From the IMG/VR virus record IMGVR_UViG_2541047775_000006: a DNA stretch of 31,163 nt; one strand, given 5' to 3'. Positions 22,411 through 29,072 of this stretch are shown here, in pieces (the stretch's first letter is position 1; every line of letters begins with the position of its first letter). Under the pieces are notes generated by a model. That model saw only the letters and a program-made list of their open reading frames with translations. It had not been told where the DNA came from and did not search any database. Position numbers and translations under genes: made by a program. This DNA comes from a virus (taxonomy: Duplodnaviria; Heunggongvirae; Uroviricota; Caudoviricetes).

Positions 22411-23048
22411 GCGTTAGTTTCTCCACAACCAGAAGCAATCGACGCCACGACGCCCGGAGCTGCACACTCGCGGGCGTTACTCTTTTCCGGCGCACAAAAA
22501 ACACGAAATAACAGTGTTAAATGCTCCTGCCACTTCGCCATTACTTGGTAGCTGTTCTCTTCGATTTGCTCACGCTCAGCCTGGTCAATAACTCCATCAG
22601 CAGTTGCCTTGCGTAAGTACTGGGAATGCTTGCCAATCCATTCTATTGACTCCATCAGCCGCTGATTAATGTCACCATTGTCAATGTCATCAATGACCAC
22701 CAGCGGCACAAACACCCCATTACTACGACGGGCTATTGCATCCGTTACATGCCTGGTACCACTGGCATCCTGTAAAACCATGGCCCACTCAAGTGGAAAA
22801 ATTTGATCCCCACCGCTACGCAGTCTGTTATGCAATTGATCTTTTGCTGGGGTGATATCATCAGATTTATACAAACCAAGAATTTCTGCTGCTTCCTCAT
22901 AGCCATGAGGTAAATCAGCAATCGTTCTTCGTATTGCTGCCACCAGCCATGCTGGTTGCTTATCAACTTTCCATTCAGGTTCTTTACCCACGTTTAAGCC
23001 CTCATATCTGTGGTTTCTGTAAATCGATTTATCCATTAGATTTTTCAT
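22407..23048 (-). CDS. early regulatory protein at the cII position (function unassigned)
   Basis: Probable ATG at 23048 ([13 protein letters not shown]...), just 5' of the cro stop; track ORF start 23105 would overlap cro by 77 nt. Confidence 0.55.
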
Positions 23049-23229
23049 AAAGCTCAGGTTTAAATGGCAACCGTCCGCAAGTTCTATATGCAGCCTCTGC
23101 TGCACGTCCTTTTGGAATTAACTGGCCAGGACGGTTTCGCCACTGATAAACGGCTTCAGTTGTTATGCCGAAAAAAGCAGCAACTTTCTCAATGCTGCCG
23201 AAGTAGCTTTCGATATCGTCAGTCGTCAT
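23029..23229 (-). CDS. cro: Cro-like HTH repressor
   Basis: 66 aa, divergent from cI across a 97-bp operator region; HTH-like segment VAAFFGITTEAVYQWRNR. Confidence 0.7.
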   Translation of the reverse strand: MTTDDIESYFGSIEKVAAFFGITTEAVYQWRNRPGQLIPKGRAAEAAYRTCGRLPFKPELYEKSNG

Positions 23230-23326
23230 ATGCCCTCCAAACTAAGTTTTATTAGATGTTAATTATCAATCTATCTTAGGTCAATAAAAACTAAGATTAC
23301 TTAGTAATTAAAGAAATGGTGCTCCT
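23230..23326. promoter_or_regulatory. OR-like operator/promoter region (divergent cro and cI promoters)
   Basis: Three 16-bp operator-like sites sharing half-site ACTAAG/CTTAGT: ACTAAGTTTTATTAGA (23241..23256), CTTAGgtcaataaaaaCTAAG (23276..23296), ACTAAGATTACTTAGT (23290..23305). Confidence 0.65.
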
Positions 23327-23953
23327 ATGGAAACGGTTGGTCAGCGTATAAAAGCTCTGAGAAGAGTTACCAGAACGTCCCAGAAAGAATTGGGTAAATT
23401 TTGTGGAGTAAGTGACGTTGCTGTGGGGTACTGGGAGAAAGACATCAATGTCCCTGGTGGGGAAGCACTTTCAAAATTAGCGAAGTTCTTCAATACGTCA
23501 ATAGATTACATTCTTTATGGTGCGGAGTTTGAAGGCAAACTCGTCACAAACATGCGCAGAGTTCCTGTAATCTCGTGGGTTCAGGCTGGGCAGTTTACTG
23601 AGTGCAGGACAGCAGAAGTGTTTAGTGAAGTAGACAAGTGGGTAGATACATCATTAAAGATTGGTGATAACTCATTTGCATTGGAGGTTAAAGGCGACTC
23701 CATGACTAACCCTAACGGCCTCCCAACAATACCAGAAGGCGCAACAGTGATTGTAGATCCTGATGCAGAACCCCGGCATGGAAAAATAGTCATCGCTAGA
23801 CTTGATGGAACAAACGAAGCCACAGTAAAAAAATTAGTTATCGATGGCCCTCAAAAGTTTTTAGTGCCATTAAATCCCCGGTACCCCAACATCCCGATCA
23901 ATGGTAATTGCCTCATCATTGGTGTAGTCAAAGGAGTTCAATACGAACTCTAG
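23327..23953 (+). CDS. cI: CI-like repressor (HTH_XRE plus S24 LexA-like peptidase)
   Basis: 208 aa; N-terminal HTH (QKELGKFCGVSDVAVGYWEKD), C-terminal peptidase with Ser in GDSM and Lys in VKKL; GGTGCTCCT ATG. Confidence 0.9.
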   Translation: METVGQRIKALRRVTRTSQKELGKFCGVSDVAVGYWEKDINVPGGEALSKLAKFFNTSIDYILYGAEFEGKLVTNMRRVPVISWVQAGQFTECRTAEVFSEVDKWVDTSLKIGDNSFALEVKGDSMTNPNGLPTIPEGATVIVDPDAEPRHGKIVIARLDGTNEATVKKLVIDGPQKFLVPLNPRYPNIPINGNCLIIGVVKGVQYEL

Positions 23954-23972
23954 CCCCCCCTTTTCTCTAACC

Positions 23973-24006
23973 AAAACACCGAACTAAGAAAAGTTTGGTG
24001 TTTTCT
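23973..24006 (+). terminator. terminator-like hairpin after cI
   Basis: AAAACACC...GGTGTTTT, an 8-bp stem followed by CTCTT, about 20 nt after the cI stop. Confidence 0.45.
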
Positions 24007-24017
24007 CTTGCCATTAA

Positions 24018-24033
24018 AACTAAGTTAAGTTAG
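24018..24033. promoter_or_regulatory. OL-like operator site (ACTAAGTTAAGTTAGA), possible pL region
   Basis: 16-bp site matching the OR half-site pattern; possible -35 TTGCCA (24009..24014) and -10 TAGATT overlapping it, directed to the plus strand. Confidence 0.4.
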
Positions 24034-24142
24034 ATTTTATATCAAAGATAACGAACAGGCAGGACGCCCACGAAGTAGCCGCCTGGGGCATATGAAGTCC
24101 AGGATGATTCGTTAGTACCAAAAAAGCGCCCTACCGGACGCT

Positions 24143-24175
24143 TCGCTCTTTAAAAATCAGTAACCCTCACTTTGG
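24143..24175 (+). promoter_or_regulatory. boxA-like motif with short downstream hairpin (nutL-like)
   Basis: CGCTCTTTAAAAAT resembles lambda nutL boxA CGCTCTTAAAAATT and rrn boxA (from memory); followed 11 nt later by CCCtcacttTGGG. Confidence 0.35.
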
Positions 24176-24309
24176 GCCTGGATCTGGTGGCCTGGGACGA
24201 GGTGGAATATGAAAAGGCTCTATTGGTCGACTCATTATCCAATCCTATTATGTCTCATTTCTTCGGTTTCGGTGGTTTCGGCTTCGGAGGTACATGTCCG
24301 TGAACTGGA

Positions 24310-24804
24310 TTATGCTTGTTGGTCATCATTAATATCCGTTAGTTCATTCTCTAGAGGTAGATCTCCCGCACACCAAGCTATAAATTTTTCTTTGGTTGTT
24401 AAATCGTACTTAGTTGGAACACCAGCAAAAATACAGGCCCGAATGAAAGCCGCTCGTTCAAGTGATTTCCATGGATTACTATCAGTATCTTGGATTTTTA
24501 AATACCTAGCTTGCAACTGATCTTCAGGAAGGGTATCAGACTCAATCAGCAGTCTTTTGTAATGCCTCGCTTGCTCTTTAGACATTCCAGCCTCTTGGCC
24601 AAACTGATAGACCAACTGAAGAACCGAAAGTACGGCAACAAACAAACCGAAAATAAATAAATTACTGTACGGGGCGAAAACTGAAAAACCGAGAACGATT
24701 AACATCAACGTTATTAATTTATCAATGCGAGTTAACAACGTGTAATTCATCTTCTCCAATACATAAGAGTAGTGAACATAAAATTTATAATCGTCTCTGG
24801 TCAT
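24310..24804 (-). CDS. unrecognised membrane protein, convergent to cI (candidate exclusion/defence moron)
   Basis: 164-aa uninterrupted ORF in AT-rich DNA; hydrophobic segments LITLMLIVLGFSVFAPYSNLFIFGLFVAVLSVLQLVYQF, then a charged soluble C-terminal domain. No family recognised by eye. Confidence 0.6.
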   Translation of the reverse strand: MTRDDYKFYVHYSYVLEKMNYTLLTRIDKLITLMLIVLGFSVFAPYSNLFIFGLFVAVLSVLQLVYQFGQEAGMSKEQARHYKRLLIESDTLPEDQLQARYLKIQDTDSNPWKSLERAAFIRACIFAGVPTKYDLTTKEKFIAWCAGDLPLENELTDINDDQQA

Positions 24805-24905
24805 ATTAGTCTCAGTTTTCCTTGGGTGGTTTTGGAGGAACTGGAGGCTTTTGTCTTAACGGCACATGCCTCTCCTCATACTTATCTACACATAGATCCA
24901 TATAA

Positions 24906-25053
24906 ATCCTTATCGTTGTTGGGGAGGGTTACATAATAACCAAATCCTTGTTGTTGGGGAATAACCAGGTCCACCTCGCCTGATGTGGCTAAAAGCAGGC
25001 ACATAACAGCTAAGTATTTTCAACCAGAGAGAATCCTTAGCGTTGTGGTGAAT
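24906..25053. repeat. three imperfect approx. 20-bp direct repeats flanking a 15-bp palindrome
   Basis: ATCCTTATCGTTGTTGGGGA (24906), ATCCTTGTTGTTGGGGA (24944), ATCCTTAGCGTTGTGGTGA (25033); palindrome GGTTACATAATAACC (24927..24941). Confidence 0.6.
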
Positions 25054-25193
25054 GCGCAGGCTGATGCGCGAAAGACATTGCAGCTATTGCGGAAAAGAGC
25101 TGTTCGGCGGGGCAATTAAACGCCCGTGAGAGTCTGAAATAACCGCAAGCCGGAGATCAGCACCGGTCACCACAACAGCCACTGCTTTGGCGG

Positions 25194-25322
25194 TACCAGT
25201 TTGTACACTTGCTTCCGGCTGGTACCGCTCTTTTTACAAAACAGAGAAGAGCATCACCGGACGACGGGCTCATAACCCAATCCATCCGGGCGGCTGCCAC
25301 CGCAGGTGTTCTTCTCTGTTTT
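25194..25322 (+). promoter_or_regulatory. structured leader of early-left operon: hairpin, boxA-like motif, long stem-loop
   Basis: GGTACCAG...CTGGTACC (25194..25228) followed by GCTCTTTTTACAAAA (boxA-like), then a perfect 13-bp inverted repeat AAAACAGAGAAGA / TCTTCTCTGTTTT (25238..25250 and 25310..25322) enclosing a GC-rich 59-nt loop, ending about 35 nt before the rdgC-like ATG. Confidence 0.5.
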
Positions 25323-25358
25323 GTGGAGAAACTAATACATTGTGCAGAGGAAAATAGA

Positions 25359-26276
25359 ATGAAATTACCAAAATTTCGTAACGCAATTGTGTACCGAGCA
25401 ACATTACCTAGTATACAGGCTATTGAAGGTCATCTTCTCGAACTCCCTTATTCTGAAATCGGGGAAACAGAATTTTCACGGTCCTCTTTTGTAGAGAATC
25501 CTGTCACTGGTGAACTGGTAACTCCGATATCTGGTGGGTACGCAATGGTAATCCGTCATGATCAGAAAATAATTCCCCGACATGTCGTCATGAAAGAAGC
25601 TAATTCTCGAATCCAAACAATCGAAAATATGTCCGGGAATAAATTAAAGCGTGCCGAACGACTGGCCATTATTGATAACGTACGAGTAGATCTATGCAAA
25701 CAGGCATTTGTTAAGTCTACGCTGATTCTTGCATTGTACAGCACTGATGAGAAATTATTGGTAATCAACACAACCAATAAAATAATAGCCGGTATGGTAT
25801 GCGCAATGCTGATTAAGGTTGTCGGTTCAGTGAAAACAGAAACAATCAACATCAGTGATATCAAGAATGGACTGACTACACGCCTGAATAACTACATCAA
25901 TGGTGCAGCCAATGCATTTGAAGGATTCACTGTCGGAAATTATATTCAGCTATCACGCTACGCAGATCAAAAGGAAATTATTCGCTACTCAGCTGAGCAT
26001 GAGTCAATTCAAAGCGAACTGGCCGATAGCCTTAGTAGTAGTTTCACTGCTGATAAAATGGAGTTATCCGGTTGCGGTGTGACCTTCATTCTTACCGAAA
26101 ATTTCCATTTTTCGCGCATCAATACTCAATCTCAGACATTTAATGATGAAGATGATAAAGCATTCCAGTGGCGTCATCAGACTGGCGCTGACCTTTTCCA
26201 ATTCAGCAAGGTAGTTAATTTGATGTGTGACCTTCTTTCTTACAAAGAAGATAAAAGCCAAAATCCAACAACTTAA
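25359..26276 (+). CDS. RdgC-like recombination-associated protein
   Basis: ATG at 25359 with GAGG SD gives MKLPKFRNAIVYRATLP... (RdgC begins MLWFKNLMVYRL as I recall); central VIRHDQKIIPRHVVMKEA...KLKRAERLA parallels RdgC. Track ORF start 25209 lies inside the leader hairpin. Confidence 0.6.
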   Translation: MKLPKFRNAIVYRATLPSIQAIEGHLLELPYSEIGETEFSRSSFVENPVTGELVTPISGGYAMVIRHDQKIIPRHVVMKEANSRIQTIENMSGNKLKRAERLAIIDNVRVDLCKQAFVKSTLILALYSTDEKLLVINTTNKIIAGMVCAMLIKVVGSVKTETINISDIKNGLTTRLNNYINGAANAFEGFTVGNYIQLSRYADQKEIIRYSAEHESIQSELADSLSSSFTADKMELSGCGVTFILTENFHFSRINTQSQTFNDEDDKAFQWRHQTGADLFQFSKVVNLMCDLLSYKEDKSQNPTT

Positions 26277-26280
26277 AAAA

Positions 26281-26324
26281 ATTGCAGCAATCATCCCATG
26301 TCAAATGGGCTGGATTGCTGCAAT
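26281..26324. promoter_or_regulatory. 44-bp near-perfect palindrome between rdgC-like and HD hydrolase genes
   Basis: ATTGCAGCAATC atCCCATgtcaaATGGGctg GATTGCTGCAAT: 12-bp perfect outer arms plus a 5-bp inner stem, flanked by A-runs. Confidence 0.55.
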
Positions 26325-26366
26325 CAAAATTCAGAGCGGTGCAGCGCATATAACGTGGAGAACAAA

Positions 26367-26903
26367 ATGTCATTTATTAAAACTTTTTCCGGGAAGCATT
26401 TTTATTATGACAGGATAAATAAAGACGACATCGTGATTAACGATATCGCGGTTTCCCTTTCAAATATCTGCCGCTTTGCCGATCATCTTTCTCACTTCTA
26501 CAGTGTCGCCCAACATGCGGTGCTTTGCAGCCAGCTGGTGCCGCAGGAATTTGCTTTTGAAGCGTTAATGCATGATGCAACAGAAGCGTATTGCCAGGAT
26601 ATTCCCGCTCCACTGAAACGCCTTCTTCCTGACTATAAACGGATGGAAGAAAAAATAGACGCCGTAATCCGTGAGAAATACGGGTTACCCCCGGTTATGA
26701 GCACGCCCGTGAAATATGCCGATCTCATCATGCTGGCAACCGAACGCCGCGATCTCGGGCTTGATGATAGCTCTTTCTGGCCTGTACTGGAAGGTATCCC
26801 GGCAACAGAGATGTTCAAAGTGATTCCACTGTCGCCAGGCCATGCCTACGGGATGTTTATGGAACGTTTTAACGAGTTATCGGAGTTACGCAAATGCGCA
26901 TGA
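26367..26903 (+). CDS. HD-domain phosphohydrolase (YfdR-like 5'-deoxynucleotidase)
   Basis: ATG 26367 with GGAG SD (MSFIKTFSGKHFYYD...); HD motifs H (AQHAV), HD (LMHDATEAY), D (QDIP). Resembles prophage CPS-53 YfdR as I recall. Confidence 0.65.
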   Translation: MSFIKTFSGKHFYYDRINKDDIVINDIAVSLSNICRFADHLSHFYSVAQHAVLCSQLVPQEFAFEALMHDATEAYCQDIPAPLKRLLPDYKRMEEKIDAVIREKYGLPPVMSTPVKYADLIMLATERRDLGLDDSSFWPVLEGIPATEMFKVIPLSPGHAYGMFMERFNELSELRKCA

Positions 26904-27256
26904 ATGTTTTCGAAATGGAAGGGTTTCTTCGCGGGAAATGTGTACCACGAGATCTGAAAGTGAATGAAACAAATGCTGAGTACCTGGTACGTAAATTCGA
27001 TGCGCTTGAAGCTAAATGTGCGGCACTGGAAAACAAAATAATACCAGTGTCAGCTGAACTGCCGCCAGCAAATGAAAGTGTTCTGTTATTTGATGCTAAC
27101 GGAGAAGGCTGGCTAATTGGCTGGCGTTCTCTCTGGTACACCTGGGGACAAAAAGAAACCGGAGAATGGCTGTGGACATTTCAGGTCGGGGACCTTGAAA
27201 ACGTCAATATCACTCACTGGGCAGTAATGCCGAAAGCACCGAAGAATAAAAAATGA
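26894..27256 (+). CDS. DUF551-like protein
   Basis: 120 aa; C-terminal GEGWLIGW...THWAVMP motif; start overlaps upstream stop. Confidence 0.55.
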   Translation: MRMNVFEMEGFLRGKCVPRDLKVNETNAEYLVRKFDALEAKCAALENKIIPVSAELPPANESVLLFDANGEGWLIGWRSLWYTWGQKETGEWLWTFQVGDLENVNITHWAVMPKAPKNKK

Positions 27257-27456
27257 GCGTGATAAAAACTCATACAGGAATTGTTATCACCCGAGACGGT
27301 CCGCAGGTAAAAAAACTGCACCAGACAAAGCGGATGTGGGTCGTCGGAAAAAACGAGTTTTACCACAAAGAAACCGGACGCCGCCACTTTGCAGAAAATA
27401 CTCGCCGCCGACTGCTGATCGATACCATCAAGCCTATCGAGGTGAAGCATGTTTAA
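27253..27456 (+). CDS. hypothetical small protein
   Basis: 67-aa ORF, ATGA coupling to upstream gene. Confidence 0.5.
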   Translation: MSVIKTHTGIVITRDGPQVKKLHQTKRMWVVGKNEFYHKETGRRHFAENTRRRLLIDTIKPIEVKHV

Positions 27457-27688
27457 ACAGAACGAAAAATCTATCGCTCAAATTGCTGAGTATATCCCGC
27501 GTGCGTGCCGGGATATGCAGTTGCAGGAAGCCAAAGCACGCCTGGAGAAAAAAATTGCGCTCTATATCGATGACGGCTGTGATGCCGCCGTTCTTAACGC
27601 GGCGTTCGCGCCAGCTCTTAACAGTCATACGCGAAAGTCTTTTTTTTCGTGCATCGCAGCGCAGATCCGTAAAGGAGGCAACCAGTGA
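27449..27688 (+). CDS. hypothetical small protein
   Basis: 79-aa ORF, start overlaps upstream stop. Confidence 0.5.
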   Translation: MFKQNEKSIAQIAEYIPRACRDMQLQEAKARLEKKIALYIDDGCDAAVLNAAFAPALNSHTRKSFFSCIAAQIRKGGNQ

Positions 27689-28284
27689 GCAACATTAACT
27701 ATCAGGTACTGCGTGAAAAGGCAGAGAAAGCAACTAAAGGAAGCTACATCGTAGGGCATACATCTGTTAACCAACACGGCAATTTAACAGGAGTTTTTGT
27801 TTGTCAAAAATGGAAAGGAGAACCCGGTGGCGTAATTGCAGAATGTCACGTTAACTGCCTGGTTGAAACAGATGCTCAGGCTTATGCAAACGCTGAATTC
27901 ATAGCAGAGGCTAACCCGGCTACCGTGCTGGCACTGCTGGATGAACAGGAAAGAAACCAGCAATACATCAAACGCCGCGACCAGGAGAACGAGGATATTG
28001 CGCTAACGGTAGGGAAGCTGCGCGTTGAGCTTGAGGAGACAAAATCAAAACTCAACGAGCAGCGCGAGTATTACGAGGGAGTTATCTCTGATGGGTGCAA
28101 GCGTATTGCTGAACTGGAAGCGCGGGAAGTTCAATTACCGACTCGCTACGACCTTCGATATGGACACCCGATAAATGCAGATGAGCGACAAGTCATGATA
28201 CCTAAAGAAAATGGCAGTTGGCTTTACCTGATTGACCTAGAACACGCATTACGCGTCGCTGACATTCGTATCAAAGGAGAGTGA
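27685..28284 (+). CDS. Ead/Ea22-like protein
   Basis: 199 aa, GTG start with AAAGGAGG SD; N-terminus MSNINYQVLREKAEKATKGSY and central coiled coil typical of Ea22-like proteins. Confidence 0.6.
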   Translation: MSNINYQVLREKAEKATKGSYIVGHTSVNQHGNLTGVFVCQKWKGEPGGVIAECHVNCLVETDAQAYANAEFIAEANPATVLALLDEQERNQQYIKRRDQENEDIALTVGKLRVELEETKSKLNEQREYYEGVISDGCKRIAELEAREVQLPTRYDLRYGHPINADERQVMIPKENGSWLYLIDLEHALRVADIRIKGE

Positions 28285-28285
28285 T

Positions 28286-28549
28286 ATGGCCACTTTAACA
28301 AAAAAAGAACGGGCATGGTTGAATGAATTACAGGACGTTCTTGATCGCTGTCCATCACCAAAAAAAATTGGTTTTTACACCATTGGCGATAAAACCATTT
28401 ACCTGTATGACCTACGCCGCATGGATGAAATCATGGAGGCTCTTGATAATCGTTCGTCGATGGATTGGTGTGTTGCTGTCCATGATATGAATGCAGGGTT
28501 TGATGAAAAGATTTTGTTCCCCTCATCAGTTGAAAGCACTGCGGGTTAA
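28286..28549 (+). CDS. hypothetical protein
   Basis: 87-aa ORF, AAAGGAGA SD, tightly packed in operon. Confidence 0.5.
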   Translation: MATLTKKERAWLNELQDVLDRCPSPKKIGFYTIGDKTIYLYDLRRMDEIMEALDNRSSMDWCVAVHDMNAGFDEKILFPSSVESTAG

Positions 28550-28559
28550 GGAGTAACAC

Positions 28560-29072
28560 ATGACCACTATAACCAAAGAGCGACTGCTGACAATCAAGCA
28601 GTGGCGCGAAACATACGGACCGGGTAGCAACGTTGTGCTTCCAGCAGAAGAAGCGGAAGAGCTGGCACGGATTGCGCTGGCATCACTGGCAGCAGAGCCG
28701 GTGGCAAAGATTATAGCTCATTACCCATTAGGAGTTGACGTAGGCAAACAAAAATTCGTACAGGCCATTAGAGAGCTTCCTGACTTTGGCGGATATCTAT
28801 TTGCCGCCCCTCCAGCGCCGATAGTGCCGGAAGAAATGTATTGGCAGGATGCGCCAGTTGAAGGCAGCAGCAAAGCGGCTGCATACGCTACAGGCTGGAA
28901 CGATTGCCGCGAAGCCATGCTTCAGTCCGGAAACTTTCGGGAAAATAAAGATTCGTCAACCAATAATTTTCGGAAAATCCCGGAAGCGTCAACCAGCTCT
29001 CCGGTAACTCCGGATGGTTGGATAAGCTGTAGTGAGCGAATGCCGGACGACAGGCAGGAGGTGAATCAATGA
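28560..29072 (+). CDS. hypothetical protein with DUF551-like C-terminal fragment
   Basis: 170 aa, TAAGGAG SD; C-terminal DGWISCSERMPDD resembles the start of a DUF551 domain but ends shortly after. Confidence 0.5.
   Translation: MTTITKERLLTIKQWRETYGPGSNVVLPAEEAEELARIALASLAAEPVAKIIAHYPLGVDVGKQKFVQAIRELPDFGGYLFAAPPAPIVPEEMYWQDAPVEGSSKAAAYATGWNDCREAMLQSGNFRENKDSSTNNFRKIPEASTSSPVTPDGWISCSERMPDDRQEVNQ

Follow-up and report, generated by a model that had tools for sequence, protein, structure and literature searches.

The palindrome at positions 26281-26324 of the window (the whole stretch of 31,163 nucleotides of phage DNA that was analysed) is a copy of an RNA stem-loop, hitherto unannotated, that lies just after rdgC, and it most likely shapes the processing and stability of the mRNA of the early-left operon. 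The element is an intercistronic mRNA stem-loop of a kind already known, and it is present in more than 250 prophage loci.

The window is a lambdoid prophage of the SfV / mEp460 / cdtI type, and its + strand here carries the early-left (pL-type) operon: rdgC comes first, followed by yfdR, which encodes a 5'-deoxynucleotidase of the HD hydrolase family, and by further + strand genes, some of which resemble genes annotated in mEp460 as Ea22-like and DUF551. Ahead of rdgC lies a cI-like repressor gene (23327-23953), flanked by operator-like dyads (CTAAG-ATTA-CTTAG and CTAAGTTAAGTTAG) at 23231-23327 and 24005-24040 that are presumably OR and OL. The boxA-like consensus YGCTCTTWA is matched exactly at two + strand sites, 24144-24152 (CGCTCTTTA) and 24572-24580 (TGCTCTTTA), the first of them downstream of a promoter-like sequence (24008-24036) and followed by a small CCC..GGG hairpin. 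These sites hint at a nutL-type site and at processive antitermination of the early-left operon; no obvious N gene was seen. Between the presumed pL and rdgC there is also a 164-aa ORF on the - strand (24310-24804) that has no Pfam match and whose transcription would run head-on into that of the early-left operon; L002 has a counterpart at this position, annotated as a hypothetical protein. Closer to rdgC, a canonical intrinsic terminator (25191-25237, +; GCGGTACCAG-N19-CTGGTACCGC followed by TCTTTTT) separates the immunity region from the gene. The leader that holds it (25036-25335) is 99% identical to mEp460 and matches no Rfam family; some 1.0-1.1 kb ahead of the hairpin, 122 related loci share a leader motif, CATAACCCAATCCATCCGGG. 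The 3' part of rdgC itself contains a 24-nt direct repeat (26072-26095 and 26220-26243, +), 88% identical, its copies 148 nt apart.

The gap between rdgC and yfdR had been described, in a sequence-only reading of this DNA, as 90 nt long with A-runs flanking a palindrome of perfect 12-bp arms and a nested 5-bp stem. This description holds. The gap extends from the rdgC TAA (26274-26276) to an ATG at 26367, the outer arms are complementary at 12 of 12 positions, and nested inside them CCCAT (26295-26299) pairs with ATGGG (26305-26309) across the loop GTCAA. An asymmetric 2x3 internal loop, with AT on one side and CTG on the other, separates the two stems, which together make 17 bp (12 + 5). An A run precedes the stem and CAAAA (26325-26329) follows it; a point absent from the earlier description is that the upstream run becomes U6-7 directly after the stem when read on the - strand. 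Structure prediction on both strands, which had been proposed as a check, gives a stable hairpin each way, with -25.9 kcal/mol (z -4.0) for the + strand RNA and -27.6 kcal/mol (z -2.9) for the - strand RNA. The coordinates of the features are collected in Table 1.

Table 1. Features of the rdgC-yfdR gap and its borders, in window coordinates.
Feature	Position	Strand	Basis or remark
Phage rdgC, upstream cistron	25359..26276	+	Pfam RdgC, E 5.4e-31; RefSeq name rdgC
A run between rdgC stop codon and stem	~26275-26281	+	Sequence, - strand fold
5' outer arm, ATTGCAGCAATC	26281..26292	+	The family's variable arm
Inner stem-loop, CCCAT-GTCAA-ATGGG	26295..26309	+	Sequence, fold
3' outer arm, GATTGCTGCAAT	26313..26324	+	Within the near-invariant G/U-rich strand AUGGGYUGGRUUGCUGCA (26305-26322)
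Single-stranded linker, CAAAATTCAGA	26325..26335	+	Flank statistics, unpaired in fold
Hairpin 2, GCG-GTGCAG-CGC	26336..26347	+	Short G+C stem, GUGCAG/UUGCAG loop
Shine-Dalgarno GGAG (26357-60) and yfdR ATG (26367-69)	26357..26369	+	Sequence, annotation

An open reading frame at 26298-26903 begins inside the palindrome, as had been noted, and the proposal that yfdR instead starts at 26367 agrees with the annotation of mEp460, with a homology that restarts upstream of this codon and with the GGAG that precedes it. Gene calling is corrected accordingly, the ORF from 26298 being spurious. A fusion of RdgC to YfdR by readthrough of the stop codon was rejected: the window and L003 have the two genes in frame with a stop-free interval, L045-type loci do not, and the continuity of the frame is therefore a coincidence.

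By itself, a perfect 12-bp inverted repeat is just mildly unusual, the longest inverted repeat having arms of at least 12 bp in 5 of 60 dinucleotide shuffles of the window (loop of at most 40 nt). The case beyond chance therefore rests on conservation in related loci. This conservation, together with strand-specific pairing over more than 250 loci, makes it hardly credible that the palindrome is a product of chance with no function. The same grade applies to the idea that AUGGGUUGGGUUGCUGCA codes for a micropeptide (MGWVAA...). The inner arm always has an AUG or GUG, but the tiny reading frame has no Shine-Dalgarno sequence, its AUG lies inside the stem, and its length (from 7 aa to more than 30 aa) and C-terminus are unconserved.

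The family was assembled from loci anchored on the RdgC protein (92 in IMG/VR, plus genomes of Kluyvera, Raoultella and Enterobacter); a genome-contig search with the RdgC protein gave three loci only, and a second search of viral contigs, with a protein alignment as query, returned the same loci as the first. The hairpin stands at the same place in the RdgC-anchored loci, even at 66-69% protein identity, and a search with its 3' half (ATGGGYTGGRTTGCTGCA) found at least 120 further contigs. Three types of gene precede it: RdgC of type A, RdgC of type B, which shares only 20-24% identity with type A and closely resembles the chromosomal protein, and, as type C, an unrelated gene of 389 aa. In an independent sample of type B loci, anchored on the protein and collected without use of the motif, about 76 of 80 carry the element. 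At least four genes follow it, among them yfdR, a diverged yfdR, a 99-aa gene and a gene whose product begins MNHIEFIEK. With three upstream types and at least four downstream genes, the element is independent of its neighbours. The base of the stem lies 4-9 nt past the stop codon in all lineages (4 nt in the window). In type C loci (L089) an unassigned stretch of some 350 nt separates the 389-aa gene from the hairpin, and in a relative with RdgC of type B (71% identity), at L286:2098-2160, a classical terminator (GGGCTATC..GGTAGCCC and TTTTTT) takes the place of the family hairpin, so that the element is not obligatory after rdgC. The suggestion that the gap between these two genes of the operon holds a structured element is thus borne out by conservation in related loci.

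A covariance model built from 47 variants has, with filters off, a single match in the window (26278-26326, +; 57.6 bits, versus 27 on the - strand) and finds one copy in each related locus; it has no match in mEp460. A dispersed extragenic palindrome of the REP/BIME or other type was rejected on these grounds, and no other copy of the half-site or of the core TTGCWGCAA occurs within the window. A scan of 23000-29000 against Rfam 15 gave no match at the element even at E<=10, RefSeq annotates nothing at its position, and a search of the literature for a stem-loop or small RNA adjoining phage rdgC, or for boundary sequences, found nothing relevant. The Pas sRNAs occur in an unrelated context. 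An integron attC-like site was also rejected by eye, the arm GTTGCTG misfitting the consensus core GTTRRRY.

The two strands of the hairpin have varied very differently. Its 3' strand (AUGGGUUGGGUUGCUGCA) is G/U-rich and almost invariant across lineages. The 5' strand varies between lineages (GCAGCAAUUACCCCAU, AGUGACCUGCCCCAU, CAGCUAUUCACCCA, AAGCAUCUAACCCAU and AGCGACUUAACCCAU are examples, and GCAGCAACCCAACCCAU is perfectly complementary) and stays complementary, largely by means of G.U pairs. When column entropies are summed for each arm over the protein-anchored variants, the 5' arm comes to 17.4 bits and the 3' arm to 4.8 bits; G.U cells number 135 and A.C cells 53, nearly all of the latter in the outermost columns. 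L089-L208 were left out of these asymmetry statistics, and the protein-anchored sets used instead, because those loci had been found by their 3'-arm sequence and are invariant there by construction. At least seven of the eight core outer pairs form in 41 of 51 variants by + strand rules, versus 5 of 51 by - strand rules. Most unique protein-anchored variants (38/51) fold better than versions with a shuffled 5' half (p<=0.05), the other 13 having no significant outer stem, and the fraction of paired cells is 74% in register, versus 25-46% when the partner is slid by one to three columns. Selection on an RNA helix predicts such an asymmetry: transitions in a C/A-rich strand turn pairs into tolerated wobbles, whereas transitions in a G/U-rich strand produce mismatches. 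The wobble pairing kept by + strand rules thus points to an element that functions as a structure of the + strand RNA and not as a DNA site. An RNA-level role is favoured, and processing was among the options that the sequence-only reading had offered.

Folding energies and individual substitutions show the same pattern. Variants rich in wobbles fold 8-12 kcal/mol better on the + strand than on the - strand (-25.2 versus -13.4 in L191), whereas the window-type stem, which has no G.U pairs, is for this reason equally stable on the two strands (-25.3 versus -24.5). The window itself has a G-to-A change at 26314 that faces U at 26291, and this T26291-A26314 pair is U.G in L003 and C-G in L047. 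All the rare changes of the 3' strand are matched by a compatible partner: G to A in L261 and L263 faces U, so that a standard pair is kept, A to G faces C in L279 and L277 and U in L037 and L252, and C to U in L026 and L279 faces A or G. Three C-G pairs and an A-U pair of the inner stem are kept in essentially all aligned variants, and the inner loop is free both in sequence and in length (3-6 nt). Pairs changed on both sides are few (3 pairs, 6 cells), because the 3' arm hardly varies; RNAalifold on a MAFFT alignment recovered the inner 4 bp only, and a column-shuffle control for the pair counts was uninformative, the 3' columns being invariant. The divergent loci L287 and L288 form a hairpin from other arm sequences and retain the AAAAUUC flank. 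In L002/L027-29 and in L212-type loci the 5' arm has decayed, and a substitute partner, CAGCAAUUC, lies 11 nt downstream of the G/U strand.

These data weigh against the binding site for a dimeric protein that had been put forward from the sequence alone: the sequence of the 5' arm is unconserved, its wobbles pair in + strand RNA only, and the half-site occurs nowhere else in the window. A DNA-level element in a wider sense, either two half-operators (ATTGC-W-GCAAT) 33 bp apart for a dimer or a cruciform or linker that promotes module exchange, is in our view improbable. Each arm is itself nearly palindromic, the 3'-arm region forming a 13-bp dyad in many variants (GGTTGC-T-GCAACC / GATTGC-T-GCAATC), the fold as single-stranded DNA (-16.6 kcal/mol) has a z of -6.1, and a mosaic junction falls exactly at the 3' edge. 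However, most lineages have a 5' arm that is neither conserved nor palindromic and whose substitutions, C<->U and A<->G transitions, only pairing in RNA can accommodate; TTGCWGCAA is found nowhere else in the window, and junctions at a conserved element are expected from the conservation and need not reflect a purpose. An operator of the CI/Cro type was rejected, since the immunity-region dyads, CTAAG..CTTAG, are of unrelated sequence.

Nor does the hairpin resemble a terminator or attenuator of the + strand, another of the early suggestions, for its tail (CAAAAUUCAG) has no U tract and the Shine-Dalgarno sequence and ATG stay largely unpaired. Rho-independent terminators share with the element a stable hairpin and, in the window lineage, the U6-7 tail of the - strand; they differ from it in that its gene-bearing strand has no U tract, the - strand tail is unconserved and the stem is long and interrupted. 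A simple terminator scan, which takes only uninterrupted stems with loops of 3-8 nt, did not list the palindrome on either strand. An intrinsic terminator on the - strand of the window lineage, which would stop antisense transcription coming from the int side, agrees with the strength of the - strand fold, which is followed by UUUUUUUAAG, with a window-type stem as stable on that strand as on the other, and with A runs upstream of the stem in L283 and L271 (adjacent) and in L133 and L128 (three bases off). Against this, most lineages lack the U tract, among them those of L236 type and of L003 type, the latter with neither an A nor a T run, and in L047 the run consists of T; - strand rules break the stem of most variants; no sigma-70-like promoter of the - strand was found anywhere in 24000-28500; and no convincing - strand gene ends at the palindrome. 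This reading is of low probability as a conserved function, and such a terminator may be an extra role specific to the window lineage.

Conservation in the gap continues beyond the hairpin. The family consensus tail is MNC-N-AAAUU, and among 64 unique flanks the C at 26325 and the AAA at 26327-26329 are invariant (64/64 each), and the two positions that follow (26330-26331) are U in 51 and 44. Further on, about 10 nt upstream of the Shine-Dalgarno sequence, the loop motif of hairpin 2 recurs before several downstream genes that are unrelated, and 142 of the 164 protein-anchored loci have it; phages of the mEp460 type have this loop and lack hairpin 1. The loop of hairpin 2 and the 3' arm of hairpin 1 could pair over 6-7 nt. 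When the gap is folded as a whole, the centroid structure leaves the Shine-Dalgarno sequence and ATG largely unpaired, and the minimum free energy structure adds only a weak 4-bp helix there.

The preferred substrate of RNase E is AU-rich RNA that is unstructured and has U at +2 (PMC5222698), and the linker next to the hairpin offers a segment with these three properties. The other half of the arrangement is a stem-loop immediately 3' of the upstream stop codon, conserved as an RNA structure. Stem-loops at the new 3' and 5' ends left by a cut protect the cleavage products. Taken together, the unpaired invariant motif, the flanking hairpins and the preference of RNase E lead us to interpret the gap as an intercistronic module for processing and stability, with predicted cleavage in AAAUU and hairpins that protect the ends, a reading to which we assign a probability of about 0.5. 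The proposed module has four parts: the hairpin with the G/U-rich 3' strand, the single-stranded C-N-AAA-UU, the G+C hairpin, and the Shine-Dalgarno sequence with the start codon. An endonucleolytic cut in the unpaired AAAUU, a candidate site of RNase E type although the motif is weak as a specificity signal for this enzyme, would leave hairpin 1 as a 3'-terminal barrier to 3'-to-5' exonucleases on the rdgC segment, and hairpin 2 would become the 5'-terminal stem of the downstream segment. Expression of the first gene would thereby be uncoupled from that of the rest of the operon. The stabiliser hairpins associated with RNase E sites in papB-papA, in malE-malF (REP) and in the puf operon of Rhodobacter are alike in having a stem-loop after the upstream stop, with unstructured AU-rich RNA next to it, inside a polycistronic transcript. 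Unlike REP, the present element is single-copy and not a dispersed repeat, and it differs from the stabiliser hairpins in its conserved sequence on the G/U-rich 3' strand and in its second conserved hairpin.

The main alternative to an RNase E-type module, though an unlikely one, is that RNase III cuts within the stem itself, an irregular duplex equivalent to about 19 bp, and splits the rdgC and yfdR messages as it does at intergenic sites of the T7 early mRNA. The stem of the window is long, with 12 bp, the asymmetric 2x3 loop and then 5 bp, one relative (L175) has a perfect stem of 17 bp, and both the intercistronic position and the structure conserved on the + strand would suit the enzyme. 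E. coli RNase III sites typically span about two helical turns, and most members of the family fall short of this, with 13-17 pairs, mismatches and many G.U pairs; cutting in the stem would also leave the invariant single-stranded C-N-AAA-UU unexplained. Known RNase III sites of phages (T7 R0.3-R1.3, and the N-leader and sib of lambda) likewise lie between genes of early transcripts and have irregular stems interrupted by an internal loop; most of the present members are shorter and have more mismatches and wobbles. Unlike lambda sib, the element has no link to retroregulation of int.

Weaker than cutting by RNase III as an alternative, and very improbable, is an alternative pairing operated by the ribosome. 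Here the G/U strand (B) would pair either with the 5' arm (A) or with a downstream segment (C; UGCAGC / CAGCAAUUC), and a ribosome finishing translation at the rdgC stop codon, 4 nt short of the stem, would melt A:B and alter the downstream fold. GCUGCA (26317-22) can indeed pair with UGCAGC (26340-45), which lies partly in the loop and partly in the stem of hairpin 2, a B:C' helix replaces A:B in L002 and L212-type loci, and the base of the stem keeps its short distance from the stop codon in all lineages. However, B:C has 6-7 bp against the 12-17 bp of A:B, segment C is missing in L047 and L209-type loci, and neither fold pairs the Shine-Dalgarno sequence or the ATG, so that no output of such a switch is evident.

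A broader and distinctly unlikely reading takes the hairpin, linker and hairpin 2 as a dedicated cis-RNA module that would either have a specific partner (for example a phage or host RNA-binding factor, or RNA polymerase) or be a ribosome-operated A:B/B:C switch setting early-left expression past the first gene, and that would in either case also serve as a recombination socket for cassettes of the first gene (RdgC-A, RdgC-B and others). Among known cis-acting structured RNAs of lambdoid early operons, put of HK022 shares with the element the presence of two tandem stem-loops. The put RNA is about 70 nt long and lies at the promoter or about 270 nt from it (PMC9378689), whereas the present element comes after the first gene, downstream of a terminator. 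In the early region of HK022, whose record does not annotate the put sites, the covariance model reached at most 11.8 bits, inside the O gene and IS903, which is nothing meaningful. A put-like RNA was rejected on position and on this mismatch, and a nut site because the rdgC-yfdR gap has no + strand boxA match.

As a short conserved sequence between interchangeable genes, the element also marks recombination joints between phage modules. Homology of the window to mEp460 and about 50 sequenced phages runs across 25036-25335, halts at 25335 and restarts at 26325, so that the interval 25336-26324 forms a module that can be replaced. This module and the palindrome end on the same base, the first base of the invariant flank is the first base of the homology with mEp460-type phages, and the mosaic joint with these phages is thus pinpointed in the window at 26324/26325, the 3' edge of the palindrome. 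In mEp460 the slot is occupied by gp35, a hypothetical gene, by yfdQ (DUF2303) and by other hairpins. In E. coli the rdgC module is rare (24-35 of 5426 complete genomes), and the yfdR segment is found in 2960 of the same 5426; strain SCU-482 is identical to the window (100%) over 25336-26420. In type C loci the joint with rdgC-type loci falls at the former rdgC stop codon. Recombination joints fall at the edges of the element because it is conserved while both of its neighbours vary, and module exchange there looks like a consequence of the conservation, not a function. A putative parallel is offered by the conserved linker or boundary sequences proposed in the modular theory of lambdoid phage evolution. 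These share with the element a short conserved intergenic sequence between interchangeable genes, with a joint at its edge; the conservation of the present element differs in carrying the signature of an RNA structure, and in view of this signature module exchange looks like a by-product.

The family adds to the known structured RNA motifs a well-sampled one that Rfam lacks, and gives it a fixed early-left slot in prophages of Escherichia, Klebsiella, Enterobacter, Kluyvera, Raoultella and Salmonella. It is also a neat case of strand assignment by wobble asymmetry, in which a frozen G/U strand and a partner drifting through wobbles identify the functional strand without an experiment; its general interest is otherwise modest, unless a specific partner or a switch should be found. 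If the processing model is true, it would explain how the first early gene of these phages, which encodes the RecA-modulating RdgC, could be expressed at a level that differs from that of the genes behind it.
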